Source of the DNA: Candidatus Thorarchaeota archaeon
Lineage (GTDB): Archaea > Asgardarchaeota > Thorarchaeia > Thorarchaeales > Thorarchaeaceae
DNA: 64,000 nucleotides
Direction: 5' to 3'
Assembly (NCBI GenBank): GCA_011364985.1
Contig: RDOC01000001.1
Span: 288,001 to 352,000 of the forward strand
Below, in pieces: positions 1-42,164 of the stretch. A model generated the notes under the pieces. That model did no database searches. It was not told the DNA's origin and saw only the letters and a list, made by a program, of their open reading frames with translations. The position numbers and the translations under genes were made by a program. Each line of letters opens with the position of its first letter. Position 1 is the stretch's first letter.

Positions 1-1
1 A

Positions 2-262
2 TCCGGCAGAATTCAGGTTTATGGCAATGCTGGTATTCTGAATGATCTTGAGGTGGAAGAGTGGAGTGCAATTGCTAGGATTGTAAGAATTTCAGCCAAT
101 GCCTCAGTTCATTTCAGCTCCTTCACATCATCTTTCCCATATGCTTTCGAGATATATTCATCTGAATATGTATTAGAAGGCCTCAGTAATCTGTCGTATT
201 TGCCTATGTCTCAAGGCGTCCTGCTCATCTATGCAAACGACCCGACAGTATTTGGTTGGTAG
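2..262 (+). CDS. C-terminal fragment of a hypothetical protein running in from the left edge
   Basis: Frame +2 is open from base 2 (SGRIQVYGNAGILNDLEVEEWS...) to TAG at 260-262. No recognisable motif. Confidence 0.5.
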   Translation, partial: SGRIQVYGNAGILNDLEVEEWSAIARIVRISANASVHFSSFTSSFPYAFEIYSSEYVLEGLSNLSYLPMSQGVLLIYANDPTVFGW

Positions 263-547: not shown

Positions 548-1693
548 GTGATTGACTTGAGCATAAGTATCTGCTTCGTATCAGGACTGCTGCCGCCAAT
601 CTCTGTTGGAGGTGTGGAAAGGTACGTCCTAAATCTTGTAGAGGAACTCCCGAATACAAAGTACAAATCGCTTATCATTAGTCATCATTATCGTGGATTA
701 GGAAAGCTTGAAAGAAAACACAATTGCCGTATCTATCGAGTTGGCTGGAACCCATTGCCATATAGTCAGGTTCGCATAATCGGTTCTATCTCCAGAGAGC
801 TTAGCAACTTAACGTCCCTTCTTGACAATGTAAAGAATCATTGGTCATTCGATATTGTTCATTCTCAATTTGGTGAGTTCAGTGATGTTGTGTATGGGAC
901 AAAGATTTGCAGAGAAAACGAGGCAAAGCATGTGGTTACCATTCATGGGAGATTCGGTACGCAATTCGAAGATATAAGAATGAATTCCAGAAGACTAGAT
1001 GTTCTCAGAAAAGCGGATTACCTAATTACGAATAGGCAGCAAACATTTCAGTACTTGTTGAAAATGGGCTTTGAGAAACTTGCTCTCCTTCGCAATCCTA
1101 TACCTGTTTCGAAATACAAACGCCCAGATCAAGAAACACCCCCAAGAGAAAGGAAGAACATCGAACTCCTTTTCTTGGGTCGCCTAAGTCTACGAAAAGG
1201 ACCATTTTTGGCAATTCAAGGATTTGCCTATGCCGCGAAGAAAGACCCCAATCTGAATCTCTGCATGGTTGGTGGTGGTGTGCTTGAAAAGCAACTAAGA
1301 GCATTTGCTGAGAAGATGGACTTGAAAGATAGGGTCCATTTTACGGGACCTCGGCTTGATATCAGACCATTTCTTTGGAAATCGGATGTGTTCCTTGCGA
1401 CATCTCCGACAGCGAACTCACCGAGCCTTTCACTTCGAGAAGCTATGGCCGCAGGTATACCTGTTATCGCGACTGATGTAGAAGAAACCGGTACTGTTGT
1501 AAGAGATGGGAAAACAGGGCTGCTAGTAAAACCCAATCCAAGGGCTCTAGGAGAGGCTATTCTTAAACTGACTGGAGATGAAAACATGATGAAACGATAT
1601 CGAATGGCTGCGGCCAAACAAGCTGAAATCGAGTTTGATCTCAACGGGTACGTTAGCGCTTTGGACAGAATCTATGATGCAATTATGGAGTAG
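548..1693 (+). CDS. GT4 (GT-B) glycosyltransferase
   Basis: N-terminal PPISVGGVERY, HVVTIHG, FLGRLSLRKG, LREAMAAGIPVIATDV. Its stop overlaps the murA GTG. Confidence 0.9.
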   Translation: MIDLSISICFVSGLLPPISVGGVERYVLNLVEELPNTKYKSLIISHHYRGLGKLERKHNCRIYRVGWNPLPYSQVRIIGSISRELSNLTSLLDNVKNHWSFDIVHSQFGEFSDVVYGTKICRENEAKHVVTIHGRFGTQFEDIRMNSRRLDVLRKADYLITNRQQTFQYLLKMGFEKLALLRNPIPVSKYKRPDQETPPRERKNIELLFLGRLSLRKGPFLAIQGFAYAAKKDPNLNLCMVGGGVLEKQLRAFAEKMDLKDRVHFTGPRLDIRPFLWKSDVFLATSPTANSPSLSLREAMAAGIPVIATDVEETGTVVRDGKTGLLVKPNPRALGEAILKLTGDENMMKRYRMAAAKQAEIEFDLNGYVSALDRIYDAIME

Positions 1694-2988
1694 TGAAGTT
1701 CCTTATGGTGAAATCTCTGAGAATTAGGGGTAAAGAGCCGCTTGATGGAAACGTAATGATTAGCGGCAGTAAGAATGCTGCAATTCCTTGCATTGCAGCA
1801 GGAATCCTCACCGATGAACCCATAATACTTCATAACGTTCCTGCAATTGAAGACATACATACTCTATGTGAAATTCTTGCAGCCATGAGTGTGAAGGTGT
1901 CATATGATGATGAGAGGACTACTCTGAGGATGCAGTGTATCAACCCTTCTTCCGATATACCTCCTTTGCTTTCCACGAAAATGAGAGGTGCCACTCTTCT
2001 TATGGGAACTCTCCTGGCCCGTTGTGGAGAGGTGATTTTCGAATCCTATGGGGGATGCCCCATTGGGGAAAGACCAATTGACTACCACCTTGATGCATTT
2101 AGGAAACTTGGAGCCAAGATAGATACGAAAGGAAACCAAATCAGAGTATCTGCGAAGAAACTCAAGGGAACACTCATTGAACTCCCATTTCCAAGTGTCG
2201 GTGCTACCGAAAATTCGATACTTGCAGCATGTTGCGCCAAAGGCATGACCACAATAGTCAACATGGCAGTTGAGCCAGAAGTCATGAATCTTATTGAGAT
2301 GCTTGGCAAAATGGGAATGCAGTACACCTTTGATGTGGCCAAATCACGAATTGATATCGAAGGAAAGACAAATCTTCAAGGCATAAGGCATTCGATAATT
2401 CCAGATAGACTTGAGGCGGGAACGTATTCTGTTGCAGCGGCAATCACCAAAAGTAGCATAACGATTCATCCTGTTGTAGAAGCTCACATCAGTCAAGTCA
2501 TTCAGGCGCTAAGGGATGCACGAGGGACTATTGAACTGGAATCCGGAATGACCATGAGAGCAGATTTCTCCGACATATGCTTAAGTCCATTCAAAATCGA
2601 AACCGGACCCTTTCCAGCCTTCCCTACTGACCTGCAACCACAGTTTACATCGCTAAGCACTCAAGCAGAAGGCAGGACTTCAATCATTGAAACGGTCTTT
2701 GAAAATCGATTTGGGCATGTTCCCGAGTTGCAGAAGATGGGAGCCAAGATCCAGATCTCTCAAAGAGAATTAACAATAGATGGACCTGTGAGTCTCAAAG
2801 GTGCACATGTAACGGCAACAGATATCCGGGGAGGAATGGCGCTGATTCTTGCCGCGCTTTGCGCAGAGGGTTCAACTACTGTCAATGGATTTGAAATCAT
2901 TGAAAGGGGTTACGACTCTCTAGAGAGCAAATTGAGCAATCTAGGAGCGAATATTGAGGTGATAGAGGACGAGGAACAACATAAGTGA
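1693..2988 (+). CDS. murA: UDP-N-acetylglucosamine 1-carboxyvinyltransferase (enolpyruvyl transferase); start may be ATG 1705
   Basis: MurA signatures intact: SGSKNAAIP, KMRGA, GGCPIGERPIDYH (catalytic Cys loop), PSVGATEN, IPDRLEAGT, FPTDLQ, FENRFGHVPEL, TDIRGG, IERGY. Confidence 0.93.
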   Translation: MKFLMVKSLRIRGKEPLDGNVMISGSKNAAIPCIAAGILTDEPIILHNVPAIEDIHTLCEILAAMSVKVSYDDERTTLRMQCINPSSDIPPLLSTKMRGATLLMGTLLARCGEVIFESYGGCPIGERPIDYHLDAFRKLGAKIDTKGNQIRVSAKKLKGTLIELPFPSVGATENSILAACCAKGMTTIVNMAVEPEVMNLIEMLGKMGMQYTFDVAKSRIDIEGKTNLQGIRHSIIPDRLEAGTYSVAAAITKSSITIHPVVEAHISQVIQALRDARGTIELESGMTMRADFSDICLSPFKIETGPFPAFPTDLQPQFTSLSTQAEGRTSIIETVFENRFGHVPELQKMGAKIQISQRELTIDGPVSLKGAHVTATDIRGGMALILAALCAEGSTTVNGFEIIERGYDSLESKLSNLGANIEVIEDEEQHK

Positions 2989-4264
2989 AGTAGTCCGAGA
3001 TAATCAATGCGTGGGGTGTGGCGCCTGCGAATTGGCGTGCCCTCATCAGGCCATAGCAATGGCAGTTGAACATAATCGAGGTGTTTACAACGCGATCGTG
3101 GATGAAACAAAATGCGTTTATTGCGGAGCTTGCATCGACGTTTGCTTTGGTGCAGCAATAGAACATCACGAACCAAAGGAATCTTTGCAGCGTCTTATTC
3201 AAAAAGGAAGAGGAATGGAAGTAGCCCGCTATGGATATGCCACAGATTCAAATCTCAGGTTTCGGGCATCATCGGGAGGGGCAGTTACAGCTCTGCTGAC
3301 TCACCTGCTCGATGAGGGGCATATTGACGCTGCAATTGTCGTGAAACTTGCGAGCACTGATCCAGCTCTTGGAGTTTCATTGATTGCCGAGTCCAAAGAA
3401 GCCATTCAAGAAGCAATGGGGTCGAAGTATTGTCCTGTGAGGATCAGCACTGCCCTAAAGCAGATGAAAACGGGAGCCAAGTATGCATTTGTTGGACTGC
3501 CTTGTCAGATATACGCAACTAGGAAACTTCAGGAGAAGGGAAGACTAAATGGCGAAATCAGTATCTATATTGGATTGTTTTGTGGAGGCACGCTTAGCTA
3601 TCATGGAACGAGGTATATTCTCAGACAGAATGATGTTGAATTCAGTAATATACAGGCAATCGGATACAGGGGATTCGGATGGCCTGGACGATTCTATGCA
3701 GAAACGAAAGATGATGTTATTTCTCTCCCATTTGTTACGTATTGGCCAAATATAGCTAGATGGTTCTATCTTGATCGTTGCCTGACATGTCTTAGTGGAC
3801 TGAACCTAAATGCGGATGTCAGTTTTGGGGACTTTTTCTCAAGGGAACATATTTCAACTGATCCTCTTGGCACATCTGTTATGTTAGTCATGTCTGGAAT
3901 TGGAGCTGAAGCTCTATCATCAACTGAGAACGCAGGTCATTTGCATCTCAAATACACAAGCATCAAGAAGGTCATTGAATCACAATCATCCATGTTTCTC
4001 AAGCATAGGAGATACCCAACAAGACTTCTGATATTGAAATTGCTCAGAATGGGAAGACCCTCAAAGGGCCGGTATGAATCAAAACTAGGTTTCAGAATTA
4101 GAGACGCTTTGGATGAGCTTCTTCTTCATTCAGGTCGAGCCCTCGCCTCTAGACCGGGACTATGGCCCTTTTTTGATGTCTTTAAGAGTCTCATGACTGT
4201 GTATAGTCGGATTGTGATGATTATTGGCAAGATTATTGTGCGAAATTCAAGTCTGAATCTCTAG
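2969..4264 (+). CDS. FrhB/FdhB-family Fe-S flavoprotein with N-terminal 2x[4Fe-4S] domain; probable ACG start at 2969 (ORF track starts at 3011)
   Basis: CVGCGACELACP and CVYCGACIDVC ferredoxin motifs; SSGGAVTALL, GSKYCP, VGLPCQ, IGLFCGG, YRGFGWPG, RCLTC, ADVSFGD. The first Cys (3008) lies upstream of GTG 3011. Confidence 0.85.
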   Translation, partial: TRNNISEVVRDNQCVGCGACELACPHQAIAMAVEHNRGVYNAIVDETKCVYCGACIDVCFGAAIEHHEPKESLQRLIQKGRGMEVARYGYATDSNLRFRASSGGAVTALLTHLLDEGHIDAAIVVKLASTDPALGVSLIAESKEAIQEAMGSKYCPVRISTALKQMKTGAKYAFVGLPCQIYATRKLQEKGRLNGEISIYIGLFCGGTLSYHGTRYILRQNDVEFSNIQAIGYRGFGWPGRFYAETKDDVISLPFVTYWPNIARWFYLDRCLTCLSGLNLNADVSFGDFFSREHISTDPLGTSVMLVMSGIGAEALSSTENAGHLHLKYTSIKKVIESQSSMFLKHRRYPTRLLILKLLRMGRPSKGRYESKLGFRIRDALDELLLHSGRALASRPGLWPFFDVFKSLMTVYSRIVMIIGKIIVRNSSLNL

Positions 4265-4317
4265 GTAGTCTTGAATAAGGATAGTTCCCTATGCCTTAGG
4301 AAATACAGGAAAGCGTT

Positions 4318-5856
4318 TTGCATGTAGAAAATACCGCCGAGGTGCAAGGTAGCTTGGATTTGTCCAACGTAATCAAGAGTGCTGTTTTCATATATATAGG
4401 AGGATTGGTCACGAATATTCTGGGTTTCGTATTCTGGCTAGTTGCATCTAGTTACGTACCCCCAGATGTTGTTGGATCGGCTTCGGCCATCATAGCCCTT
4501 CAGGCACTTCTCATGACCATAATGACCATAGGTCTTCCTACAGGATTGCGTCGCTTCGTTGGAAAAGGCGGCAGTGAAGAAAGATATGATTTGATTTCTG
4601 AATACTTCGCAACAAGTATGGGCGTTAACCTCCTTCTCAATCTGCCTGTTTCACTGATTCTGATAGCTGCACCCGCTCTTCACTATAGTGGTTATGGATT
4701 ATCTGCAATAGAACTTGCATTTGTGGGGACTCTTATTCTACTTAGTTTTTGGGCACCAACTCTAGTTTCATTGTTCGATTCATTGTTGAAAACTGAAATC
4801 ACTGCCCTAGCCCAAGTACTCTCTTCGATTGTAAAACTTCTTCTCGGGCTAATGATGCTGATTCTCGGTTATGGATTCTTGGGAGTCATGATGGCATTCA
4901 TAGCGGCATCAATTACAACTGATTCAGTATTGCTATACCACGCGCGGAACATGTTCAGAGAATTTGGATATCAACCTAGGTTTGAATCAGACCGTATAAG
5001 AGAACTAGTGGAATCTGGACTGCCTGCATGGATTCCGAATATGTTGACGATAGCAGGACAATCCGTTGCCGTTCTTGTAATCTATGGATTAGTTGGAGAG
5101 AGCCAAACGGGCCTCTATTACTTAGCTTTCGCCATGGCACAAGTTGTATACACGATACCAACAAGCATTCAGAGTCTAATGTACCCAGTTTTGAGTGGTA
5201 TGAAAAGCGGACGAGAGGATGCCATTCGCCGCACTACACGTGTTTCTCTTATAGCCACAGCGCCCATTGCATTAGCTGTCGCATTGTATTCTGAAATTCC
5301 ATTCTCCGTAATAGGACCAGCATACTCAGATGCAGGTCCTCTTCTGGCAATACTCGTAGTCGGAGCGATGTTCTGGTCAATTTATGTTGGATATTATGGA
5401 TATCTATATGCAATAAAGGAATACAGGCATGTGACTGGATTGGGACTTGTTCTTAATGGAACAAGGCTGGCTTTGTATTTCCTTCTTGCTTCGTTGTTTG
5501 GTGCCATGGGAGTCGCCTTTTCCTTCATCGGGGGAATTCTCGTTGCAATGATCGGCCTTGCGTTTTCCTCAATTAGCATTGGTTACAAACCAGATTGGAA
5601 GAAGTACTTCCTAGCAATTATTATCCCGAGTACTTCCGTCATACTTGTCTGGCATCTCAGTGTAGAATGGATACTGGGAATTCCATTCATTCTTATTTGG
5701 TCATTCATCTTGTATGGAAGACTGAAGATTATGACGAGGACAGACATCTTTGAGGTGTTCTGCGGTTTGTTCACTCCTGAGAAAGCCTTGAGTATAGCAT
5801 TGCGTCTTAGGCCAGTATCAAGAATAGTGTTTGGAAAACAGAACGTAGATGAATGA
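4318..5856 (+). CDS. Oligosaccharide flippase (MOP/PST, Wzx-like)
   Basis: About 14 hydrophobic segments; 'LGFVFWLVAS...VGSAS' and 'GLYYLAF...SLMYPVLS' fit the PST exporter pattern. Confidence 0.85.
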   Translation: MHVENTAEVQGSLDLSNVIKSAVFIYIGGLVTNILGFVFWLVASSYVPPDVVGSASAIIALQALLMTIMTIGLPTGLRRFVGKGGSEERYDLISEYFATSMGVNLLLNLPVSLILIAAPALHYSGYGLSAIELAFVGTLILLSFWAPTLVSLFDSLLKTEITALAQVLSSIVKLLLGLMMLILGYGFLGVMMAFIAASITTDSVLLYHARNMFREFGYQPRFESDRIRELVESGLPAWIPNMLTIAGQSVAVLVIYGLVGESQTGLYYLAFAMAQVVYTIPTSIQSLMYPVLSGMKSGREDAIRRTTRVSLIATAPIALAVALYSEIPFSVIGPAYSDAGPLLAILVVGAMFWSIYVGYYGYLYAIKEYRHVTGLGLVLNGTRLALYFLLASLFGAMGVAFSFIGGILVAMIGLAFSSISIGYKPDWKKYFLAIIIPSTSVILVWHLSVEWILGIPFILIWSFILYGRLKIMTRTDIFEVFCGLFTPEKALSIALRLRPVSRIVFGKQNVDE

Positions 5857-7546: not shown

Positions 7547-8884
7547 TCAAGATAACTTAGAGATTATGAACTTCAGCTTCCCTCCCTGACTGGGAATGTC
7601 TTCGGTTGCTTCCATTAGAACAGGAACTTGTTGCTGCGTTTTCTCCAGCAGGATGTTTCTGACTTTTCCTATTGCGCCACGATAGTCTCTATAAGATTTA
7701 TTGGGAACAAAACGAAGAACGATCGAGTAGTCTGCATTTTGAATGAATTGAAACATTTTTACAGCTTCCGGACAAGCATCGAAGATGGTGGTGAGGAAAT
7801 CGCCACTCAATACGGTACCATTTGGAAGTCGTATCATATCTGACTCACGCCCTCTAACATGGTCCATAAGTGGAAAAGGAAGACCACATGGACACTGCCC
7901 TTCAATTAACCGACCGCGGTCCTCGTTCAGATATCGGATTATCGGGAATGCATAGTTCTCTAAATCTGTTACAACAATATCTCCGAACTCTCCCTCTGCA
8001 CATATCTCCCCATTCTTCACGAATTCGATATGGCGTATATCAGATTCTATGTGAAGACCAGTATGTTGGTTGCATTCAGCGGCAAGCCAGTAGACTTCTC
8101 CGCAACCGTATTGATCATAGACCGGAGCATTGAAGACTTTTTCAACAAGGTTTCGTTGAACCTCACTTATAGGAGAAGAGGTTAACCATACAGCTTTGGG
8201 CGGTGGAAGTTCTATGCAGTGATCATCCACGTACTCGGCCAGATGACATATGGCTCCAACGTAACCTTGTAATAGTCGAGGCTTGATGCATTTGTATTTT
8301 CTTATGAAACATCGTATGGAACTCTCTGTCATTGAAGCCGCGTCAAGTAGTACTCTTTTTGTCGGCCACCAGAATGCACAATACGCTAGGTCTTGAAATC
8401 TGGATTGGCGAACATCCCTGAAAACAAAAGCACCGTCATCCCAGGGTGCCAAATCCCATCTTGCCAAGAGCCTCCATCCAATTGCATGCAAAGGAACTCT
8501 TCTGTCGTGATATACTCTGAGTGGTATGCCGGTAGATCCACCAGTAGTCGACACTTGGAAATATCGCTTGTCCACTTCCATAGCCATGATATCGGCCAAG
8601 TTCTCTCGAATATCGTTCTTCGTGAGGAAAGGTATTTTCAGGAAATCATCAGGCGTTTTTACGTCATCTGGAATTATGCCTGCAGCCTTGAATTTCCTTC
8701 TATAGAAAGGGACTGATTTGTATGCATAACGGAGCAGTTTCTTTCGCTTTCGCCAGTTCAATTCTGCTAGTTCTCTTGAACTAAGACATTGGTTTCTTAT
8801 CAGGCGTTCATAGTACGCTGAGGAGTTGGTGTTCAGAAGAAAGAATTTTGAGTAGAAGTACGAACTCGTGAGTGAACGAAACAA
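7547..8884 (-). CDS. CapK / phenylacetate-CoA ligase / F390 synthetase-like adenylate-forming enzyme (probable TTG start 8884 after AGGAG; ORF extends to 8974)
   Basis: AYKSVPFYRRK, P-loop TTGGSTGIP, YDQYGCGE, TDLENYAFPIIRY, GRESD, GGKLKFI. Confidence 0.85.
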   Translation of the reverse strand: MFRSLTSSYFYSKFFLLNTNSSAYYERLIRNQCLSSRELAELNWRKRKKLLRYAYKSVPFYRRKFKAAGIIPDDVKTPDDFLKIPFLTKNDIRENLADIMAMEVDKRYFQVSTTGGSTGIPLRVYHDRRVPLHAIGWRLLARWDLAPWDDGAFVFRDVRQSRFQDLAYCAFWWPTKRVLLDAASMTESSIRCFIRKYKCIKPRLLQGYVGAICHLAEYVDDHCIELPPPKAVWLTSSPISEVQRNLVEKVFNAPVYDQYGCGEVYWLAAECNQHTGLHIESDIRHIEFVKNGEICAEGEFGDIVVTDLENYAFPIIRYLNEDRGRLIEGQCPCGLPFPLMDHVRGRESDMIRLPNGTVLSGDFLTTIFDACPEAVKMFQFIQNADYSIVLRFVPNKSYRDYRGAIGKVRNILLEKTQQQVPVLMEATEDIPSQGGKLKFIISKLS

Positions 8885-9195
8885 TCGATACTTGGCTCCT
8901 TTTAGGTCTTGATTCCATTCTAATGAGCAATATAAATGATAATAGCACTGCTGCAAACAGAGGCATGTTTTCAAGAAACAATATCCAAGTAATGACTCAT
9001 TTCATAGCTGCCAGCATCATCAATTGCCATTTCCGAACCAGTTCAAGGAGGACCGTGATATACCAATAGTAGGACAAGGCGAACATACAAGATGCCATTA
9101 TCACAGTATTAGGTGGAGTAATACTAAACCCAAACTATGGTGCGATGTTGTGGACTAGGGAATCCCACATTGGATTTCGGAATATTCCAAGAACC

Positions 9196-10383: not shown

Positions 10384-10561
10384 GACTCTTGTTACATCCT
10401 GTTTTCAGACAGCTGTGCAATTTCCTATGAAGAAGTAATTCATCATTTCTGACTGCCCTTTGTATCTTGAGATTCAATGGGGAGTATTGACAGCTGCATG
10501 TACTCTGCCTATGTATGAAGATTTAAAGAGAAGGTTTGACATCGAAAAGGTCAGCAGAATC

Positions 10562-11566
10562 ATGGGTGTGGGCAGGGTAAAGGAATTCAGTGTTTACATA
10601 GAGAACTCAAAGCCGCTAAACCAGAAACTCAACGATGGTTTAGGTCACATACAATGGAGACAAATTATCAGAACTGATGACCACGTATTTCTGAAACCAA
10701 ACTTCACTTTTCCATCATACCGTTATGGTGTGACGACATCTCCGTGTCTTCTTGAAGCTCTATTAGGAATTCTGAAGAATCGAGCTTCAGAAATAACAAT
10801 AATAGAATCAAATGGTGGAAACAATGTCTTCACAGCTGACGAAGCCTTCAGAGGACATGGCATTCCAAAGCTGTGCAAAGAATTCGGAATAGACGCTGTA
10901 AACCTATCAGACTGTCCTTCTACAAAGGCTAAGGATAAGATTGGTTCAAGAACGGTAGAAGTGAGCGTACCCAGATTTCTGCCGAATGAAGTGGATTGTT
11001 TTGTATGTGTGCCCGTTCTGAAGGTACATGCAATGACCTTGGTTTCGCTGGGAATCAAGAACCTGTGGGGGTGTCATCCAAATCCCATGAGATGCCTCTA
11101 TCACGAGGATATCGACAAGAAACTTGCGCTTCTCACCAAGCTCTGGAATCCGCGAATCTGCATTATAGACGGGACCTATGCACTAGACGGACATGGACCA
11201 ATGTTTGGCCAACCTGTTGAAATGAATCTGCTGATTGTTGGGAACAATGTTGTAGCAAGCGATAGCGTCGGAGCGAGTGTGATGGGCTTCGATCCCCATC
11301 ACATCAAGCACATAAGAGTGGCGTCGGAGGAGAAACTCGGTCCTATCGATTTAAGGTCGATTAGAGTAAACACAGATTGGAGAAGGTTCTGCAGGGTTTT
11401 CTCGTTCAAGAGAACGCCGCTTGATTATTTATCTTTGGTACCATTTCACAGCGAACTTCTTGCAAAGATTATTTTCAACTCACCATTCACTTCCGGGATT
11501 CGAAGAATGGTAGACATAATCAGGACTTCTGACGAAAAGGAAGACCTAAGAGGGTACGTAAATTAA
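10562..11566 (+). CDS. DUF362-family (Fe-S-associated) protein; ORF could start at 10460
   Basis: VFLKPN, TTSP, PVLKVH...SLGIKNLWGC, IIDG..ALDGHGP, VASD. Confidence 0.8.
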   Translation: MGVGRVKEFSVYIENSKPLNQKLNDGLGHIQWRQIIRTDDHVFLKPNFTFPSYRYGVTTSPCLLEALLGILKNRASEITIIESNGGNNVFTADEAFRGHGIPKLCKEFGIDAVNLSDCPSTKAKDKIGSRTVEVSVPRFLPNEVDCFVCVPVLKVHAMTLVSLGIKNLWGCHPNPMRCLYHEDIDKKLALLTKLWNPRICIIDGTYALDGHGPMFGQPVEMNLLIVGNNVVASDSVGASVMGFDPHHIKHIRVASEEKLGPIDLRSIRVNTDWRRFCRVFSFKRTPLDYLSLVPFHSELLAKIIFNSPFTSGIRRMVDIIRTSDEKEDLRGYVN

Positions 11567-14272: not shown

Positions 14273-14539
14273 CTAGTATTCTCCATGTGCTAACTTCATT
14301 AACCGCGCATTACCAGTGCTAACAGCTTTGTGCAATCATCTCCGAAGGTACAATTAAGTCTTGTTGGAAGCACTCCGTTTTTGCAGACAATACATCAGGA
14401 AGTTGGGTTTAGCGGCAAGCTAATACGCTTGAATGCTTTTGAAGCTTGAATCATTAGGAAATGATAAGTGTGGGATTTGGCGTCTGCATATTCCAACCTA
14501 GAAGATACTCAGCCGAGCTGGATGAGAGGCGATGCATAA

Positions 14540-17095
14540 TTGGAGAATGAACAAGGAATGGTATCAATCGCGTCGGATGCTCTGGTCAGGTTCCATAATC
14601 CAGTGAAGCTCATTCTTCTGTTTCTTGTTTCATTTCTTGTGTATTTCACCATGAGAGATTCTTCTTGGCCTCTAGCTCAAATGCTGTTAGGAATTCCAGC
14701 TGGACTTGTTTCCATTCTTCTCCTGCCAGGTATAGTTGCGTCAAGAATACTGATTCCTTTGAAATACCAAAACCTTGGAACATCTGTGTTCCTTGGGCTG
14801 GTAATTCAGATGCTCCTTATGCAACTACGATTTTTGTTGAGCTTCTTCTATTTCGCTACTCCCCCAATAAAGATCTGGGTTTTTGGAGGCAATTTATTTC
14901 TTCTAGTGCTGGGTGCGACTGTTCTCCAGTTGAAGAATGATTATGGCTGCTTGAAGACACCCATCAGATTCAACTATGGATGGCAATTTGCTATTCTTCT
15001 GGCAGTTTCACTAATCCTGAGGTTTGTTCTGCTGAGCCAGGTCCAAGGATCAATTTCACCAGACTCCGCACTTTATGCCGATTTTGCACGGCAGTTGGTC
15101 AATGGAAAATACGATTCGCTTGTCCTCAATGATTCTGCAGTAGTCGAATTGAGAGAAGGATTTGACTACATGGCGCATCATGCGTTCACTTATGTCTTTG
15201 CCCTGTCATATCTCCTCATCGAACCATCAACATCAGGGCCCATATTCATATTGGTCGTCATTGGAGTGTCGGTTCTGTTTCCAATATTTGAGATCGGCAA
15301 GGACTTATTCGGCGAGAGAGCGGCACTCTGGATTTGCGGATTGGTTTCTGTTCATCCTCTTTTTGTTTTTCATTCAGTTGTAGGATATGGTCCAGAAATC
15401 ACAAGTCTGCTGTATGTATTGTATGCAGTCCTCTTATTGAGGGATGAGAGGAGCACAATTCTGAGCTTGGTCATGGCTGGAGTCCTAGTGGGTCTTGTGG
15501 ATGTGACGTGGTACGCGAATTTCTACATTATATGCTTCATGCTACCTGTTGCGGCTATTCTCCAGCATTTCTGGTCAGGAAAACAGAACATGAGATTCGT
15601 ATTGCTTCTTCCAATTGTCCTGATAGCGAGATTGTACTATCTCAATGCGCCTATCTTCATGTTGTTGTGGGCGGCAATCTTTAGTCTAATCCTTCTTGGA
15701 AGAGGTACTCTGGATTGGGAGATTCAGAAACCAGTTTCCTTCTATGCAGCTCTTCTTATCATGACAGTTGTATTCCGTTTTCCTTTGCAGATTGTTTCAG
15801 AATCGATTCCTAGCGGCATACGTAATCTCGAAGCGCCATCCTTTCTATCTGCACTGCTGGTCACAGACTGGACTGGAAAGATGTTACAATTCATGTTCTT
15901 TCTTACTTGGCATTTGGGTCCAGTCATACTAATCATCCTTATTTCAACACTCATTGCAACTAGGAATAAGAATACAATTGGTCTTTCAATACTGGGTATG
16001 GTAGTCGCCTTCGGAACATTCGTTGTTCTAGGGACAATACCAGAGAGTCTTAAGATCATCTACTTCTACTCTGATTCTAGGTTCTTCATTCTGGCTGTGC
16101 TGCTATTCATATTTGCAGCCGGGGAGTTCTTCCGTAGACTATCTGCAACGCATCAAATCCATATACCTCGTATTGGCCAACTTCGAAGAGGAACTGTAGC
16201 AGTTCTGACTTTGTCGGCCATTGTCATTGGTTTCATTCCAGCATATCAGATGTATCCATCAGGACTTAGTTTAATCCACATGGAAGATAGATACGGATGG
16301 GATGGGTTTCAGGCAATTGTAGAAGACCTTGGAGATGAGGACTCCATATTCCTTGCAAATAGGGTAAGAGAGTTCTCATGGCTTACAGGAAGAAAGTGCG
16401 TCTTTCTGGCGTTCACTGACACTGCCCTACCCAATTCAAATGCCACTTCAGAGATCATGTCGTTGACGGGAGAATTCTCTGTTGATTTTTTGATTATAGA
16501 TATGTATACCACAACAAGATGGCAGACGTTAATCTTTCTCCTACATCAATCAATGGAGATCGGAGATTCGGTCTTACTCAACGGCTCAATAATCCCTGAA
16601 TGTGTTGGGGAAGGAACCTTCGGACCTGTCCAGTCATTGACTCTTGTTGTGCAAAATGAACCAAATGATGCGGGTAGATTCTCAAGAATCTTCAAAGTTG
16701 ATGAGAGCTATTTCTCATTGAATCAATCAATATCGGTAGTGGATCCAGGCTGGGAGGCTTCGGACAACGGAGAAATTCTGAACCAATCCGATAATGCACA
16801 AGTGATCATCGGAGCTGAAGCTTCACAAACGATTATTCACCGTGATGTTAGTCTCAATCTCTTGCCAGAAACAGGATTCATTCTATTCAGTATAGATGAG
16901 ATAGACGCAAATGTGACATCAATTGAAATGCTTTCAGACAATAATAGCTTAATTGGCCATGGCGAACGAATCGCCGAGGGACTCTTCATATGCTACCACG
17001 GAGAGGAACTCATCAATGACATTCGGATAACTGTTGAGGGCGAAGCTGGAGAATCTGTTGTGATTGAGTCAATCTCATTCTGGACTGACGACTAG
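14540..17095 (+). CDS. Large multi-pass GT-C-fold (ArnT/PMT-like) glycosyltransferase with acidic extracellular C-terminal domain
   Basis: More than 15 TM-like segments; 'SPDSALYADFARQLV' loop, 'HPLFVFHSVVGYGPE', 'DSRFFI'; soluble beta-rich tail. Confidence 0.7.
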   Translation: MENEQGMVSIASDALVRFHNPVKLILLFLVSFLVYFTMRDSSWPLAQMLLGIPAGLVSILLLPGIVASRILIPLKYQNLGTSVFLGLVIQMLLMQLRFLLSFFYFATPPIKIWVFGGNLFLLVLGATVLQLKNDYGCLKTPIRFNYGWQFAILLAVSLILRFVLLSQVQGSISPDSALYADFARQLVNGKYDSLVLNDSAVVELREGFDYMAHHAFTYVFALSYLLIEPSTSGPIFILVVIGVSVLFPIFEIGKDLFGERAALWICGLVSVHPLFVFHSVVGYGPEITSLLYVLYAVLLLRDERSTILSLVMAGVLVGLVDVTWYANFYIICFMLPVAAILQHFWSGKQNMRFVLLLPIVLIARLYYLNAPIFMLLWAAIFSLILLGRGTLDWEIQKPVSFYAALLIMTVVFRFPLQIVSESIPSGIRNLEAPSFLSALLVTDWTGKMLQFMFFLTWHLGPVILIILISTLIATRNKNTIGLSILGMVVAFGTFVVLGTIPESLKIIYFYSDSRFFILAVLLFIFAAGEFFRRLSATHQIHIPRIGQLRRGTVAVLTLSAIVIGFIPAYQMYPSGLSLIHMEDRYGWDGFQAIVEDLGDEDSIFLANRVREFSWLTGRKCVFLAFTDTALPNSNATSEIMSLTGEFSVDFLIIDMYTTTRWQTLIFLLHQSMEIGDSVLLNGSIIPECVGEGTFGPVQSLTLVVQNEPNDAGRFSRIFKVDESYFSLNQSISVVDPGWEASDNGEILNQSDNAQVIIGAEASQTIIHRDVSLNLLPETGFILFSIDEIDANVTSIEMLSDNNSLIGHGERIAEGLFICYHGEELINDIRITVEGEAGESVVIESISFWTDD

Positions 17096-17320
17096 GGAAC
17101 ACTCATGTTGCTCTCACAAAGATTCCTAAACATGGAAGATGGCCCTGAGGGATTTTAAGTGGTAATTCGGCATTATTGTCTTCGTTGTCCTCTGTACCAT
17201 CTAATTGGGTCAATTCTAATGTGTGATAAGAGAGATTAAAAGGAAAATGAAGTGCGACGCAAAGGAGTACAAGTGCAATCAGTTTTTGACACCACATAGG
17301 AAGCACATACCAATAGGAGT

Positions 17321-18289
17321 ATGGACAACTTGAAGGAGCTTAATGGCGCAAGAACCCTTGTGACCGGGGGTGCTGGGTTTATCGGATCACATATTGTGGA
17401 TGGCCTGATTGAACAGGATGCAGAAGTCATTGTCTTGGACGACATGAGTAATGGAGATCTGAAGAATATAGCAAGGTGGGAAGACAATAAGCGACTCAAA
17501 CTCATCAAGGGCGACATTCGAAATCAGGAGACTGTGAGGAATGCGATTCGAGATGTTGAGTATCTTTTTCATCAAGCCGCAAGGGTGAGTGTGCCCTACT
17601 CGGTGAGGAACCCTCACCTTGTGCTAGAGGTCAATGTCATGGGAACAACAGTACTCCTAGAAGAGAGCCGCAAAGCTGACGTGGAGAAGATAGTGGTGGC
17701 CTCGTCCTCATCGGTATATGGAGATACTCCTACATTGCCAAAAGTGGAAACCATGTGTACAAACCCCATCTCTCCGTACGGCGTTTCCAAACTCGCACAA
17801 GAGCAACTTGGAAAAGCATTTCATGAAACATACAACATGAATATTACATCTTTGAGATACTTCAATGTCTATGGCCCAAGGCAAAGAGGAGGGAGCTATG
17901 CAGGAGTCATTTCTATATTCTTCAAAAAGGCATTTGAGAATCAGGCCCTCCCCATTTTTGGGGATGGAACGAGTACTAGAGACTTCACCTATGTGGAAGA
18001 CGTGGTTCAGGCCAATCTCCTTGCGGCTGCCAAGCCCGTCTCGAAAGGCAGAATATACAATGTCGCAAGAGGCGAACAAACCTCTATCGATGGATTGACC
18101 GATGAGATAATCAGGTTGAGCTCTTCAAAGTCCAAGAAGGAATACCTTGCATCTAGACCAGGAGACATTCATGACAGTCTTGCAGACTTAACACTAATTT
18201 GCAGAGAGTTGGGATACGACCCGAAATATGGCATATCCGAGGGACTAAGAAAGACCTTCAACTGGATTAGCAATGAATTACAGCTCTAG
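17321..18289 (+). CDS. NAD-dependent UDP-sugar 4-epimerase (WbpP/GalE-like SDR)
   Basis: LVTGGAGFIGSH, ASSSSVYG, SPYGVSK (YxxxK), LRYFNVYGPRQ, RDFTYV. Confidence 0.93.
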   Translation: MDNLKELNGARTLVTGGAGFIGSHIVDGLIEQDAEVIVLDDMSNGDLKNIARWEDNKRLKLIKGDIRNQETVRNAIRDVEYLFHQAARVSVPYSVRNPHLVLEVNVMGTTVLLEESRKADVEKIVVASSSSVYGDTPTLPKVETMCTNPISPYGVSKLAQEQLGKAFHETYNMNITSLRYFNVYGPRQRGGSYAGVISIFFKKAFENQALPIFGDGTSTRDFTYVEDVVQANLLAAAKPVSKGRIYNVARGEQTSIDGLTDEIIRLSSSKSKKEYLASRPGDIHDSLADLTLICRELGYDPKYGISEGLRKTFNWISNELQL

Positions 18290-20242: not shown

Positions 20243-22498
20243 TCACATCTCGGAAACCTTCATTTTGAACACAAGGTATTGGCCTTCGCTGTATACTAGG
20301 ATTAAAAAGGGACTTGATTCGAACTTGGAATAGCCATGCGGAAATAGGTTGAATTCAGTAGGAGTAAATAAGACCAGACTCACCTCATATTCAAGGAATA
20401 GGTCCATTACCTCATCCATTGCAGTGGCATTATACATGGCAAAGTAGGCTTGATAGCGTGGATCAGAGGCGTTCGCTACTCTGTAGCCAGAATACAGTAT
20501 CTGGCGCCCGATAATGGCGCTCAGCTCCCAGTTCTCAGGTGCACATAACACTACCTCATCTGGTTCGGAATTCTCATAGATCCATCTTAGCATTGACCGT
20601 TCCTCGAGTGTGACCTTGGGGACCGTGCCGTAGAAGTTCTCATTGAACTCACCCAGATTGTACTGATAGAACCAAGAGGTTTGAAGACTGCCTAACAGCA
20701 GAAGGGACAAAATGAATATCATTTTTCCTGCGGCTATCGCTTTTGGTGCATGCCTCACAATGCTCTCTTTCTGTAACTTCATTCTCTGGTCGGATTGCTT
20801 CAGATTGCGCCACCAATTCTGTGAACCAAATGACCGTTCAAGTAGCTGTAAAGCATCATTTTTATTTGAACTCCAATAAGACACGCCCAGAGCAAAAGCC
20901 AGCAGAACCGATGTCTGCAGGTTGAATAGTGGGAAGTAGTCTGTGGGCATGTAGCCAATTCCCGAGTCTCGAGCCATGGAGAATAAGATGGTCGATAACA
21001 GAGTGAATTCAAGCCATACTATGGATAGCCACTTTCCCGGGCTGTCAGGAAGAGAGTGAAGAGCAATGTAGCCAATCAGGCCAAGAAAAACAAAGGGTCC
21101 CAAATAGGTTCCTAGCCCGTTAAGGATTGCAGTGCCAGTGAATCGGGGTGTTATCACGACAAGGCTCGACACCACACTACGAATGAGGAATAATCCAACT
21201 ACTCCGATGAAGATCAGAGCTTTGTACAATAGTAGGCGTTGGCACATCCTGCTTCTGGAAATGGGCCTGAGAAGAACTATGCCAACGAAGAAGATACCAA
21301 CGCTCACTAGGGGAAAGAAGCCAAGCCCGATATGGAAGAAGGGTAGCTCTACTATGCTGACAGCGATGGCAATGGTAGCACCGCCTTTCCAATTCGTCAC
21401 TCTAAAGAGTAAAGCAATGATAAAGACAAAGAAGAGAAGAGGAAGGAGATGATGAAAACTTGCTAGGAATGATTCATAGCCAAGGCCAGGGACAAAGAAA
21501 TCTGCAGGAACTCCGTCTGGCCGATCCCAAGGAAAAGAAACGCCCCTATTAATTTCGTTTGTCACTGTATAATTGAGGCCATCGTCATACACCCCAAGGA
21601 AGCGGAAGAGAGGAGCAAGATCCATAGTGACTCCGAGGCCTAGTGTGGAAATGACCATGATCCATCCTGGTATTTTCTCAGAAATGCTACGAACTGCATA
21701 GTAGATTACAGGAACAACAGCAGAATGCATTACCATCTTGACGACAATAATGAAGATGTCGCCATAACCCTGCAAGTTCATGGTTGCCATTAATATGGCG
21801 GTATAGCCAAGAGAGAGAGTTAGAGCGATTGGGTTCTCAGAGAGGGTGGAACCAAAGAAAGTGAGATTGGGGGGCGGGTAGACTCCTGTTGCAATTGACT
21901 GAATGATAGTGAGGTTATTGGTCAGGTCTCCAAACATGAAAAAAGTATCAGAAAATGAGCCATAGTACATGTGAAATGAATATGCCAAATCGAGAACACC
22001 AAGAGAGAGCCAGAGAAGAACTACAATCCATGCAGATACTGCCGGAAAACCTCTCTCCTTGTCCCCACCAGCTTTTCCTTCGAGTGTTTCAGAAGATTCA
22101 TCATGACGAAGATAACTTCCAATGCACGTCAGAAGTACTGTGATTATGAAGACCATTACTAGGAAATTGACCTGTCCAAACAGAAAGGGGCCAATATAGG
22201 CGAGAGGCGCCAAGAGAAGAGCACTGAACATGAAGGACTCCGTGAATCCTGTCAAGAGATGGTCAGGTAAACGAGGGTTCCAGTGAGGATTCCCTAGAAG
22301 GATGGTCCTGACAAGTGCGCCGCACATGAGAACAAGTAGCAATCCAGATGCGACTGAAAAGTACATGCCAAGAAATGAGAATATGAAAAGGAGGAAGGCA
22401 AGAGCAACCTTCCGCAATGCAGTTACCTGCATATATGTCAGTCTCGATCGCAGGCCAGCACACTTTGGATCAAAGATTGAATCGCCCATTATACTCAT
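20243..22498 (-). CDS. Multi-pass membrane protein, GT-C-like, with STT3/AglB-like C-terminal domain lacking WWDYG
   Basis: Many TM segments; 'FGDLTNNLTIIQSI..GVYPP' loop; C-terminal 'MLRWIYENSEPDEVVL...IIGRQILYSGY'. Confidence 0.6.
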   Translation of the reverse strand: MSIMGDSIFDPKCAGLRSRLTYMQVTALRKVALAFLLFIFSFLGMYFSVASGLLLVLMCGALVRTILLGNPHWNPRLPDHLLTGFTESFMFSALLLAPLAYIGPFLFGQVNFLVMVFIITVLLTCIGSYLRHDESSETLEGKAGGDKERGFPAVSAWIVVLLWLSLGVLDLAYSFHMYYGSFSDTFFMFGDLTNNLTIIQSIATGVYPPPNLTFFGSTLSENPIALTLSLGYTAILMATMNLQGYGDIFIIVVKMVMHSAVVPVIYYAVRSISEKIPGWIMVISTLGLGVTMDLAPLFRFLGVYDDGLNYTVTNEINRGVSFPWDRPDGVPADFFVPGLGYESFLASFHHLLPLLFFVFIIALLFRVTNWKGGATIAIAVSIVELPFFHIGLGFFPLVSVGIFFVGIVLLRPISRSRMCQRLLLYKALIFIGVVGLFLIRSVVSSLVVITPRFTGTAILNGLGTYLGPFVFLGLIGYIALHSLPDSPGKWLSIVWLEFTLLSTILFSMARDSGIGYMPTDYFPLFNLQTSVLLAFALGVSYWSSNKNDALQLLERSFGSQNWWRNLKQSDQRMKLQKESIVRHAPKAIAAGKMIFILSLLLLGSLQTSWFYQYNLGEFNENFYGTVPKVTLEERSMLRWIYENSEPDEVVLCAPENWELSAIIGRQILYSGYRVANASDPRYQAYFAMYNATAMDEVMDLFLEYEVSLVLFTPTEFNLFPHGYSKFESSPFLILVYSEGQYLVFKMKVSEM

Positions 22499-22501: not shown

Positions 22502-25138
22502 CTATGTCACCAGCTCTATTCGGTCAATCTCCAACTGCAATGTCGCTGTGTCATCTAAGATGGGATCATACACCGTGACTTTTATTTCATTGTAGCTTTC
22601 GAGAGAGAAGATTCCTGCTGTCGAGAAATTCAAGGCAATAGAGAACGAGATTCCAGTTTCTACATTTGGTGATATCCGAACCTCTTCACAAGCAGTCGAA
22701 TTGCACAGCGAAATAGTGATTCTTGGGAGTATCTCGTAGGTGCCATTCATGGTCATATGAAACAGGAAGATTGCTTCATCTATCGTATAGGCTCGTGTCA
22801 AATTCAGGGAGAGCTGTGAGTATTCAGTTCCAGTCAGGTTTGCGGGGTACGTGAAGGTGCCCGATATAGAATCGGATTCAATTGTCAGATTACCTGCAGT
22901 GCTATTCCCAGACACACTCACACCACTCGCCAAGAGACTATCACCTGCTAAGCCATCATGCAGAACTCGATTAACGTAGAGATCAATTGTTGGAATACCT
23001 CTTTCTGACAGGCTATGAGCAAGACGGAACGCACCAGAGTTCATCAAGAGAGAAACCCATTGAGGCGAATCTGGAAAGAGCTCGAACCATCCTTCCGAGA
23101 GAACAAAGACATCAACGGGAAGAGACATGATGAGAGCCAGAGATGCAAGAGAACTCTCTTGACTGGCTAGATATGAGGGGGGGATTATGATTCTTCTGCT
23201 AGGTATATAATAGTTTAGAACATGAGGTGCTCTGACAGTCATTAGATACCCTAGATCCGGATATGTGCCGATCAGCATGCTAGCTTCCATCAGACTATAG
23301 GTGGGCTCAAAGTAGTTGGGACCATCATATACAAGATGCAACGAGTTTTGATACATTCCTGTATAGCTTACTTGAGGCATTACAAGTGTGATGTTGATAC
23401 TAATCGCGATGACAATGAAGTATCGCTTCAGGTCCTTTCGACTCAATCTTGTGCGGATGAGTCTAATCGAATCGATGAGCTTTGTCAGAACTACTGCTGA
23501 AATCAGAAGAAATGACCATAGACAGTAGACCATATGATGCTGAAGAAGCCTCGTTTCCATTACATAGAAGGGAATGTGTGCAAGAAAAATGGCAACTGGC
23601 AGGTCTCTTGTCATATGGTCATTGTATCTCTTTGAAACCCAAGGAGTGAGAAACACTAATCCCAACACAAGCAGTGGAGTTTGGAATATCAGAAAGAAAG
23701 CAAAGAAGCCCATGTTGTGAAGGACCAGCAGTCCCTCACTAGCAACCCAGTTGGTCTGTGAGTATCCCAGCAGCTTACTAATCGGATTTGTCCATCTTAG
23801 AGGATAGCTGATGAAATAGAAGCAGAGAGAGATGATGCTCAGTAGACCAAGCGAGATAAATCCTCTGGAGAAGTATTCAGTATTCCACTCCTTCTTGTTC
23901 GTATTGATGAGAAGTACCAGAAATAGGCCAAATATGAAGGGGAAAAGGATCAAGATTGATTTGAACATCGAGGAAATCCCAAGGAATATTGCTGACAGAA
24001 CAAGGTTGATGCTACCGTTATTTGAGGCACGAATCAGGAAATAGAGTGCTAGAGCCATCATGGCACTCAGGGGAATCTCTTGATAGAGCGAACGGGAGTA
24101 CTCCAGCAGGATGGGATTTGTAATGATGAATAGAACAGCAATGTAGAACGACTTTCTGTCTCGAATCAATGCTTGAGCGATTAGACCTACCGCTCCGGCG
24201 AGAATTATGAAGAAGAATCGAACCGTCACGCGGTAGATAGCAAACACACCAATTCCAGTTACATAGGAGAGAAATCCGACAAGAAGGGACAGGCCTATGT
24301 TCTTTGACGAACCATGAATCATGGCCCAAGCAGTATAGGAGAAGTCGCCATCGACGAGATTGGAACGCACCATCTCTGCAAAATCGAGATAGCCCCAAGC
24401 CACATAGTTCCAAATCTCTGAGAATTGGCCTTCTGGGCCAGAAAGGCCCATGCCGACAGAGTCATTGTGCACGTATCCAGTATCTGTGACGCTAAGAAAG
24501 ATGAATATCACGACCAGAAACACAACGGCTACAATGAGATGGGATTGCTTGGGCAGGAGCGTACTCAACTTGCTTCCAGAGCCCTCAATATCCTCCTTGG
24601 AGTTGGCTTTCTGCTCTCTCAGCCTAAGAAGGTCAAAGGGTATTATTTGTAGTATTAGTAGAAACCCAGCCGCAATCAGAAGTAGACCAATTGGAAAGAA
24701 CTGTACGTAGGGATAGGAGCAAGTCTCCAGCCAGTAGGTGGTCGTAATTTCTTCGTTGTAAGAGTCCACATATATCCAGAAGGAATAGTTGGAGAATCCA
24801 TCCACGAAGAATGTGAGTCGAGGCTCATGCATCCATGCAGTCATGGCTATTGTACGATTGACATACCGAATGCTGAGAATGCCCGTTCCATTTGACATCT
24901 CCACACGGATTCCGAGAATCTGGTCGACTTCGAGATACTGTCTGCTAATTAGGACGGTAGTATTCTCTTGGATATTTGTGATTGTGATTGAGTCATGTGA
25001 GTATTCACTGACTGTCGTCTGGGAAATTCCAATGAATACGGAACCAAATGCAACGAGTGAAACGATAAGAAGAACGCGGCCAACTTTGATGTGACTAGGA
25101 AGAATCTGATTCAAACTTCGTCGCTTCAAAGATATCAC
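22502..25138 (-). CDS. ArnT/PMT-family GT-C glycosyltransferase with sequon-rich extracellular domains
   Basis: 'NPILLEYSRSLYQEIP' and 'LGISSMFKS' are PMT_2-type motifs; many N-x-S/T sequons in the N- and C-terminal soluble domains. Confidence 0.72.
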   Translation of the reverse strand: MISLKRRSLNQILPSHIKVGRVLLIVSLVAFGSVFIGISQTTVSEYSHDSITITNIQENTTVLISRQYLEVDQILGIRVEMSNGTGILSIRYVNRTIAMTAWMHEPRLTFFVDGFSNYSFWIYVDSYNEEITTTYWLETCSYPYVQFFPIGLLLIAAGFLLILQIIPFDLLRLREQKANSKEDIEGSGSKLSTLLPKQSHLIVAVVFLVVIFIFLSVTDTGYVHNDSVGMGLSGPEGQFSEIWNYVAWGYLDFAEMVRSNLVDGDFSYTAWAMIHGSSKNIGLSLLVGFLSYVTGIGVFAIYRVTVRFFFIILAGAVGLIAQALIRDRKSFYIAVLFIITNPILLEYSRSLYQEIPLSAMMALALYFLIRASNNGSINLVLSAIFLGISSMFKSILILFPFIFGLFLVLLINTNKKEWNTEYFSRGFISLGLLSIISLCFYFISYPLRWTNPISKLLGYSQTNWVASEGLLVLHNMGFFAFFLIFQTPLLVLGLVFLTPWVSKRYNDHMTRDLPVAIFLAHIPFYVMETRLLQHHMVYCLWSFLLISAVVLTKLIDSIRLIRTRLSRKDLKRYFIVIAISINITLVMPQVSYTGMYQNSLHLVYDGPNYFEPTYSLMEASMLIGTYPDLGYLMTVRAPHVLNYYIPSRRIIIPPSYLASQESSLASLALIMSLPVDVFVLSEGWFELFPDSPQWVSLLMNSGAFRLAHSLSERGIPTIDLYVNRVLHDGLAGDSLLASGVSVSGNSTAGNLTIESDSISGTFTYPANLTGTEYSQLSLNLTRAYTIDEAIFLFHMTMNGTYEILPRITISLCNSTACEEVRISPNVETGISFSIALNFSTAGIFSLESYNEIKVTVYDPILDDTATLQLEIDRIELVT

Positions 25139-42100: not shown

Positions 42101-42164
42101 GTTCAATGCCTCTATCTCTCCAAGAGAGATGTATCTATGACATAATGATTGTGGTAGCAGGATT

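Follow-up and report, generated by a model that had tools for sequence, protein, structure and literature searches.

Near the beginning of the window, a 64,000-nucleotide stretch of a Candidatus Thorarchaeota contig, lie co-oriented genes for a GT4 glycosyltransferase, a MurA, an FrhB-like iron-sulfur flavoprotein and a flippase, preceded by the end of a gene for a large membrane protein (Table 1). The preliminary description of this DNA had reported the four open reading frames, and all of them are found where it placed them, on the + strand. The coupling of the GT4 gene to murA is also borne out, the GT4 stop codon and the murA GTG sharing base 1693, and every MurA motif that had been quoted is present in the translation. 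The reported overlap between murA and the FrhB-like gene, however, exists only if the latter starts at the ACG at 2969; from the GTG at 3011 it would begin 22 nt past the murA stop. As a cassette, the GT4-murA-frhB core holds, whereas the flippase is not a constant part of it and the upstream gene had been missed. All reading frames of the cassette are intact in the host genome.

Table 1. Genes and signals at the start of the window; positions are those of the window unless a contig is named.
Feature	Position	Strand	Basis	Remarks
C-terminal-coding end of a 1308-aa membrane protein with predicted GT-C fold	1..262	+		Begins outside the window (C11:284336); the conserved block opens with this gene
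GT4 glycosyltransferase, dedicated, altered donor-sugar loop	548..1693	+	PF00534/PF13439	
MurA, UDP-N-acetylglucosamine enolpyruvyl transferase	1693..2988	+	TIGR01072 above cut-off	Alternative start ATG 1705
Shine-Dalgarno-like GAGGTGAT within the murA tail	2956..2963	+	Read from the sequence	
ACG, probable and non-canonical start codon of frhB	2969..2971	+	Relatives' starts at the matching place	
2[4Fe-4S]-ferredoxin + FrhB-like flavoprotein, proposed enolpyruvyl-ether reductase	2969..4264	+	Fer4, FrhB_N, FrhB_C	3011-4264 from the canonical GTG
Wzx/MATE-type flippase	4318..5856	+	PF01943	Wider locus, not fixed cassette

The murA product scores 462 bits against the equivalog profile TIGR01072 (cut-off 392.7), and its best match in the PDB is a MurA at 326 bits, against 124 for NikO and 73 or less for AroA. 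An AroA role was rejected, the aroA profile giving 79 bits against a cut-off of 287. On alignment to PDB 6Q03 the catalytic Lys, Asn and Arg, the Cys loop, the Asp and the C-terminal Arg are all kept, and K27, N28, D54, R98, C122, R127, H132, E194, R239, D313, R339, R379 and R405 are invariant across the 16 members of the clade. In the MurA tree the cassette sequences come together with moderate support (aLRT 85), in a separate group whose named members are archaeal. A Loki murA was rejected as a member of the cassette: it sits on another branch, has no partners and has Arg379 changed to Gln. When contigs were searched with the MurA alignment, bacterial murA was among the matches listed.

The third gene encodes two Fer4 motifs followed by FrhB_N and FrhB_C (PF04422 and PF04432), with 8 + 4 invariant cysteines and the fold of Fsr, FrhB and HCAR; domains, Fe-S cysteines and fold place it in the FrhB/FdhB superfamily. 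It was rejected as the beta subunit of an F420-reducing hydrogenase, scoring 50 bits against the frhB profile TIGR03289 (cut-off 331), with CofD not found in either the host genome or its relative G329. Ferredoxin or F420 had been put forward as the electron donor, and the F420 part of that proposal is weakened: with CofD not found, F420 is the less likely donor. Nor does the protein have the MurB fold, being without FAD_binding_4 and MurB_C; it may work like MurB, though it is not a MurB.

Judging from the sequence, ACG 2969 is the probable start codon of this gene. A start at GTG 3011 would lose the first Cys of the first Fe-S cluster, and in the relatives (10 of 10) an ATG, GTG or TTG stands at the corresponding site, which gives an overlap of 0-20 nt with murA. 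A canonical start is seen, for example, in G329 (MFW9979859.1). The element GAGGTGAT is complementary to a 16S-tail-like sequence of the genome, and its spacing to the ACG falls within the range for 33 canonical starts. The C of the ACG occupies the wobble position in an Asp codon of murA (GAC, not GAT), the ACG base is identical in a separate assembly, and there is no ATG variant among the cluster members of the FrhB-like protein. With an ACG start, any reduction step that depends on this protein may be weakly expressed in the host genome, and the copy there may be crippled.

The GT4 has the domains of its family together with the His, the Arg/Lys and the second Glu. The first Glu of the EX7E motif, which binds donor O3 (PMC3898925), is missing from a remodelled donor-O3 loop in which N290, P292, S293, R297 and E298 are invariant. 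The register is ambiguous here, N290 falling at the first Glu in one alignment and residue 289 in another; residue 289 is acidic (Asp or Glu) in 3 of 11 sequences, and the window GT4 has Asn or Ala at the site in either register. A single clade (100/100) holds all nine of the murA-adjacent GT4s that were tested, and across 400 Asgard genomes the cassette GT4 occurs only in the two with a cassette murA. The 1308-aa protein upstream is predicted by structural modelling to have a GT-C fold: residues 1-800 (pLDDT 77) best match AglB 5GMY (E 7e-8), DPY19, STT3 and AftA, at a TM of about 0.4, and every one of the 24 fold matches with E no higher than 0.001 is a GT-C enzyme. It has no Pfam match, PF02516 (AglB/STT3) included, and a separate AglB is encoded in G329. 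Its orthologue lies directly upstream of the GT4 gene in 13/14 loci.

The order GT4-murA-frhB is identical in all 14 readable loci, which were reached from murA, from frhB and from GT4 and some of which are near kin. The murA/FrhB-like linkage, one of the points on which the preliminary description could have failed, is thus conserved and not due to chance. The flippase is directly downstream and co-oriented in four of the 14, several others being cut there, and it is also found behind pyruvyl-transferase-frhB pairs. A search for fused proteins, which is a weak test, returned two unrelated fusions and none of MurA with FrhB. The cassette had been called archaeal and possibly Asgard: the host is indeed an Asgard archaeon, but the cassette is rare in that group (2/400 genomes), and it occurs also in Nitrososphaeria; an Asgard-wide trait was rejected. 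This rarity and the ACG start could speak for an assembly error, contaminating bacterial DNA or a defunct remnant, a reading that we consider very improbable and, for the cassette, largely refuted. The genes lie on a 471-kb contig with TFIIB, their tetranucleotide distance is at the 19th percentile of the genome, their frames are whole, and their order is repeated in another assembly, in another Thor genus beside the same pyk gene, and in a Nitrososphaeria contig.

The absence of a murB, on which the preliminary description relied, extends beyond the window, since neither PF02873 nor TIGR00179 was found in the host genome (74.4% complete) or in the 95%-complete G329. Mur ligases (PF08245; MurC-F) and the pyruvyl transferase PF04230 were not found in these two genomes, both of them incomplete bins, and both encode an archaeal GlmU. 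Within the window, a Pfam scan of 40 ORFs likewise gave no murB, murC-F, mraY or murG. A Bathyarchaeia bin with murA and murB, and with no Mur ligase found, is a parallel solution; the 401 genomes of its class yielded no cassette murA, and the bin itself was the only one recovered with murA and murB.

We suggest that MurA makes an enolpyruvyl-UDP-HexNAc, that the FrhB-like protein takes over the part of MurB by reducing this to a lactyl ether, and that the GT4 transfers the product. The interpretation in the preliminary description is to this extent supported, and none of the three points checked against it (linkage, a murB elsewhere, bacterial mis-assembly) spoke against it. We give this a probability of roughly 60%, with all of the chemistry inferred from the genes. 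Together the three proteins probably make a muramic-acid-type sugar that is put into a surface glycan. First, as its family and residues indicate, MurA would put enolpyruvate from PEP on O3 of UDP-GlcNAc or of a closely related UDP-HexNAc. Ferredoxin or flavodoxin would then supply electrons, to be passed through three Fe-S clusters to the FAD of the FrhB-like flavoprotein, which, to judge by its partners, would reduce the C=C of the enol ether to a lactyl (1-carboxyethyl) ether, MurB's job in bacteria, giving UDP-MurNAc or its (S) isomer. The dedicated GT4 would move this O3-carboxylated sugar onto a lipid-linked glycan, as its co-occurrence and changed O3 loop suggest. Least certain of all, the flippase and the GT-C-fold protein might move the glycan and attach it outside.

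The case for the reduction was originally made by analogy with BciB, which reduces a vinyl group with ferredoxin. The history of the FrhB-like lineage offers another line of evidence. The 11 murA-linked copies form one clade (100/99) nested among pyruvyl-transferase-linked copies when four other FrhB-likes are taken as the root of the tree; support for the sister grouping is 91/92. Among 20 Asgard matches to the FrhB-like profile, two lie by murA and 15 are beside or fused to PF04230 (five fusions), the rest being one that is cut off and two outgroups. In a sister Thor genome the genes run GT-C, pyruvyl transferase, frhB, flippase, DUF362 and two GT4s; the downstream ones share 38-59% identity with their counterparts in the window, and the pyruvyl transferase occupies the slot held in the host by GT4 and murA. 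A bacterial-type murA and a GT4 probably replaced the pyruvyl transferase in an older pyruvyl-transferase/FrhB-like module, and this partnership and its replacement carry more weight than the comparison with BciB.

Bacterial capsule loci offer a comparison. Of the Klebsiella capsule loci, K66 alone has an 'F420 hydrogenase' gene, which it has along with a pyruvyltransferase, and the K22/K37 loci have a pyruvyltransferase and a nitroreductase (PMC4616057); K22/K37 bear a lactyl group (bioRxiv 2025.09.09.675204). A search by DNA similarity for E. coli lactyl-ether loci gave no matches. K66 presumably bears a lactyl ether, and the partner of wfeP in E. coli O124 may be FrhB-like. The role of FrhB-like proteins as lactyl-ether reductases in these reference loci is a genetic correlation only, and no assay of them as lactyl-ether enzymes was found in the literature, where the linkage is by genetics.

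FrhB-fold chemistry is varied (Fsr, Frh, HCAR), and most PF04230 enzymes make ketals, without a redox step. It is therefore conceivable that the enol ether stays unreduced, the FrhB-like protein serving glycan synthesis through some other redox step or the glycan keeping an enolpyruvyl or ketal group. We think this improbable: it leaves unexplained why the FrhB lineage stands beside two unrelated PEP-using transferase folds and is fused with one of them, and the lactyl-bearing K22/K37 loci have a nitroreductase as counterpart. A second question is the order of events. The GT4 could transfer enolpyruvyl-HexNAc first and the FrhB-like protein then reduce it on the lipid-linked glycan, with the same end product; the protein would then be no true stand-in for MurB, and free UDP-MurNAc would never be made. 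The FrhB-like ancestors work with PF04230 enzymes, several of which (CsaB, WcfO) act on lipid-linked sugars, and the GT4 loop change is compatible with either O3 ether. The lactyl sugar of E. coli O124, however, is placed at the UDP-sugar stage (wfeP, UDP-GlcLA; PMC7685785), and reduction after transfer appears unlikely to us.

A slightly smaller chance attaches to a different nucleotide sugar (UDP-GalNAc, UDP-ManNAc or a uronic acid) as the acceptor of MurA or to an (S) ether, either of which would give a lactyl-ether sugar that is not muramic acid by a mechanism overlapping the one we prefer. Near the active site the MurA clade has Ala changed to Gly99, Pro to Tyr119 and, in 12/16 members, Phe336 to Tyr, so that the sugar may not be GlcNAc. 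UDP-sugar dehydrogenases and epimerases are present in cassette loci, NikO is a MurA relative with a changed acceptor (PMC6801904), and (S) isomers are known in bacteria (PMC10609480). Against these points, the murA equivalog cut-off is passed, the window copy retains Phe336 and Asp313, and 74 of 121 bacterial-invariant columns are kept, all the catalytic ones included. The full form of our preferred reading, in which true UDP-N-acetylmuramic acid arises through a ferredoxin-driven FrhB-fold enzyme and enters a surface glycan via the GT4 and the GT-C-fold transferase, with muramic acid not confined to bacteria, we hold only tentatively, at a little short of even odds.

Like the bacterial MurA/MurB route, the archaeal cassette has a true MurA with its catalytic residues and, as proposed, enolpyruvyl transfer followed by reduction. 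It differs in that no MurB fold or Mur ligases were found in the two cassette genomes, in a reductase that is an Fe-S flavoprotein of FrhB fold and probably not NADPH-linked, and in a proposed product that would be used by a GT4 instead of receiving a stem peptide. With the PF04230 and FrhB-like pairs (Klebsiella K66 wcqF/HG203; E. coli O124 wfeP) it shares the FrhB-like lineage, the proposed lactyl-ether product and the slot in archaeal glycan loci, but its enolpyruvyl donor would be MurA, of unrelated fold, and it has an added, dedicated GT4. Fold and Cys ligands are common to its FrhB-like protein and the FrhB-family reductases (F420-hydrogenase beta, the N-terminal part of Fsr, HCAR and BciB), from which it differs in having about 20% identity to solved structures, scores far below family cut-offs and no hydrogenase partners nearby. 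FrhB-like proteins are common in glycan loci. NikO, the nikkomycin enolpyruvyl transferase, is likewise a MurA-fold enzyme outside peptidoglycan, but it acts on UMP and is much the weaker match.

Archaea are marked in textbooks by their lack of muramic acid, and the sugar is used as a biomarker for bacteria; an archaeal route, if true, would be an exception to both. A search of the literature, mostly of papers outside subscription, found nothing that links murA to FrhB-like genes or reports muramic acid in glycans of archaea. An earlier paper listed six archaeal sequences resembling MurA and eight resembling MurB, with a guessed role in cell walls or extracellular polysaccharides (PMC10117817); it gives no partners, context or mechanism and, in the passages concerned, notes no FrhB-like, GT4 or GT-C link. 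If our reading is true, the stray archaeal murA genes left unexplained there would acquire a function. With its rare and patchy occurrence, the cassette tells little about Asgards at large or the origin of eukaryotes. It does make the FrhB-like/lactyl-ether question easy to test, the likely substrate being obtainable with any MurA and UDP-MurNAc serving as standard, and a GT4 that uses an O3-carboxylated donor, if such it is, would be a new tool.

The four cassette open reading frames lie where the preliminary description placed them, and Pfam and NCBIfam agree with the identities it gave them: a GT4 glycosyltransferase, MurA, an FrhB-like protein (2[4Fe-4S]-FrhB_N-FrhB_C) and a flippase (PF01943, Pfam). 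MurA scores 462 bits against an NCBIfam equivalog cut-off of 392.7. With the cassette at its start, a stretch of about 38 kb is given over to glycosylation and contains GT4s, GT2s, epimerases, a second flippase and a sugar dehydrogenase. The 471-kb contig around the window also encodes TFIIB, the cassette resembles the genome as a whole in tetranucleotide profile (distance at the 19th percentile), and G329, a relative of the same family listed at NCBI as Ca. Thorarchaeota, carries the same gene block near the same pyk gene. These observations exclude the bacterial mis-assembly considered earlier, and that the cassette is an artefact is barely credible. A canonical murB elsewhere was not found; neither MurB, Mur ligases, PF04230 (polysaccharide pyruvyl transferase) nor CofD was detected in the window's genome (74% complete) or in G329 (95%), and archaeal GlmU is present in both.

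Thirteen database proteins match the window MurA at 396-438 bits, and all remaining ones score 363 or less. The predicted linkage of murA to the FrhB-like gene is conserved: GT4-murA-frhB occurs in that order in all 14 readable loci of this MurA group, some of them near kin (the window, five reached from murA, G329, two from frhB matches, two further loci and three from the GT4 side). The flippase directly follows in 4 of the 14. The suggestion of an Asgard trait fits the host, but the cassette is rare there (2 of 400 Asgard genomes, counted by murA and by GT4) and one locus reached via frhB matches is named Nitrososphaeria. None was seen among 401 genomes of the class of a Bathyarchaeia bin discussed below. 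The separation of cassette MurAs from their bacterial counterparts is moderately supported (aLRT 85).

The FrhB-like protein carries cysteines for three clusters and shares its fold with Fsr, FrhB and HCAR; a hydrogenase subunit was ruled out by score. When 400 Asgard genomes were searched with a profile, 20 matches emerged: 15 adjoin or are fused to PF04230, two lie by murA, one is cut off and two are distant. The next-best database matches likewise sit behind PF04230 genes, as does a Klebsiella plasmid copy. The murA-linked proteins form a single clade (100/99) nested within PF04230-linked copies, and in the matching locus of another Thorarchaeota genome, G392, a pyruvyl transferase holds the slot of GT4 and murA. 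Because of these neighbours, this nesting and the G392 locus, we conclude that one reductase lineage keeps two unrelated PEP-using transferases as partners. An enolpyruvyl ether is the product that both could share, and its reduction would give a lactyl ether. Fusions with pyruvyl transferase, in both domain orders, occur in five Asgard genomes (L109, L111, L115, L118, L123); two unrelated 50-aa peptides (P0414, P0415) in the protein's cluster are a database clustering artefact.

Klebsiella K66 has a lactyl ether. Among Klebsiella capsule loci, K66 alone has an FrhB-like ('F420 hydrogenase') gene, plus a pyruvyltransferase, and K22 and K37 pair a nitroreductase with a pyruvyl transferase (PMC4616057). 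K22 and K37 carry a lactyl group (bioRxiv 2025.09.09.675204), and wfeP is required for UDP-glucolactilic acid in E. coli O124 (PMC7685785). The published genetics point the same way as a lactyl-ether role for the FrhB-like lineage, and we regard a pathway with no reduction as very unlikely. To our knowledge Klebsiella lacks F420, and since CofD was not found in the two cassette genomes either, ferredoxin, one of the two donors first proposed, or flavodoxin is likelier than F420. A DUF362 Fe-S protein, seen near the cassette again in G329 and locus L140, and also in G392, could be a redox partner.

A GTG start at 3011 would cut off the first cluster Cys of the FrhB-like protein. Its frame stays open upstream to 2966, and this added stretch lacks a canonical start; all 10 relatives have ATG, GTG or TTG at the position of ACG 2969. 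Given these starts, a Shine-Dalgarno-like site at ordinary spacing upstream of the ACG and the same base in a separate assembly, the gene appears built to start at 2969; the window copy is either translated from ACG or recently impaired.

Nine murA-adjacent GT4s examined form one clade (100/100), with 39-48% identity to the window GT4, whereas the other GT4s encoded in these loci reach at most 30%. Structures of GT4 enzymes show the donor-sugar O3 bound by the first Glu of EX7E (PMC3898925). The cassette loop has an invariant Asn, and an Arg ahead of the second Glu; MshA Glu316 aligns with that Asn in one alignment and with the preceding residue in another, and in either register the acid is absent from the window GT4 and 8 of 11. 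Judging from sequence, a donor bearing an O3 carboxylate ether would need such a loop change. Reduction only after transfer seems unlikely, and we put reduction at the nucleotide-sugar stage at roughly 0.6.

Upstream of GT4, 13 of 14 loci encode a membrane protein of 1250-1330 aa; the matches of its predicted model with E values of 0.001 or below are all GT-C enzymes, AglB ranking first. From the observed gene identities, residues, folds, linkage and displacement, we suggest that MurA would form enolpyruvyl-UDP-HexNAc, the FrhB-like protein would reduce it, GT4 would move the product onto a lipid-linked glycan, and the flippase and GT-C-fold protein would export and attach that glycan. Precise identity of the product with (R)-MurNAc, borne in a surface glycan, is a tentative proposal, slightly short of even odds; a clearly different sugar is quite unlikely.

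The cassette would work like MurA/MurB, yet outside the Mur pathway, and descends from the PF04230/FrhB-like module without its transferase. All parts belong to known families, and none of the literature searched described their combination. Such chemistry would be surprising for archaeal glycobiology and is readily testable, but the cassette is rare and the window copy has a doubtful start codon. One paper describes a small number of archaeal MurA-like genes, of unclear role (PMC10117817). The Bathyarchaeia bin G400, in which no Mur ligase was found, has murA and murB behind an archaeal-looking membrane gene on a 2.9-kb contig that could be mis-binned; this suggests that archaea acquired this chemistry more than once.

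Locations of cassette genes and other features
Location	Strand	Feature	Remarks
Window 548-1693	+	GT4
Window 1693-2988	+	murA
Window 2969 or 3011-4264	+	FrhB-like gene
Window 4318-5856	+	Flippase
Window 7547-8974 and 10460-11566		PaaK/F390-synthetase-like ligase and DUF362 Fe-S protein	Within glycan locus
Window 14540-17095, 20243-22498, 29363-31492		Long ORFs (851, 751, 709 aa)	No Pfam match; candidate GT-C or glycan-acceptor proteins
Window 22502-25138		878-aa ORF	Weak PMT_2 match; candidate GT-C or glycan-acceptor protein
Window 35488-36486		Ornithine/aspartate carbamoyltransferase-like gene	Weak match to C-terminal domain only; adjoins UDP-sugar dehydrogenase
Window 40703-54300		Two aldehyde:ferredoxin oxidoreductases, two amidohydrolases, dihydropyrimidine-dehydrogenase-like gene	Purine/pyrimidine breakdown-type region; could supply reduced ferredoxin
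L010:8558-12139 and 14336-18262 (contig C11:278558-288262)		Two large membrane proteins	No Pfam match; 19% identity over 800 aa; second has GT-C fold in predicted model; putative archaeal GT-C-like family of glycan loci, so far without a name
L126:4596-5869		murA called as two pieces	One of the 14 cassette loci; probably assembly error; intact 424-aa member in same cluster
L075:429-2640 (CAZQTZ010000229.1, bin G400)		murA then canonical murB	After end of archaeal-looking membrane gene; possible second archaeal route to UDP-MurNAc; short contig
L095:10163-11359 (G156, Promethearchaeota)		Solitary murA	Different branch; no glycan genes nearby; Arg379 to Gln
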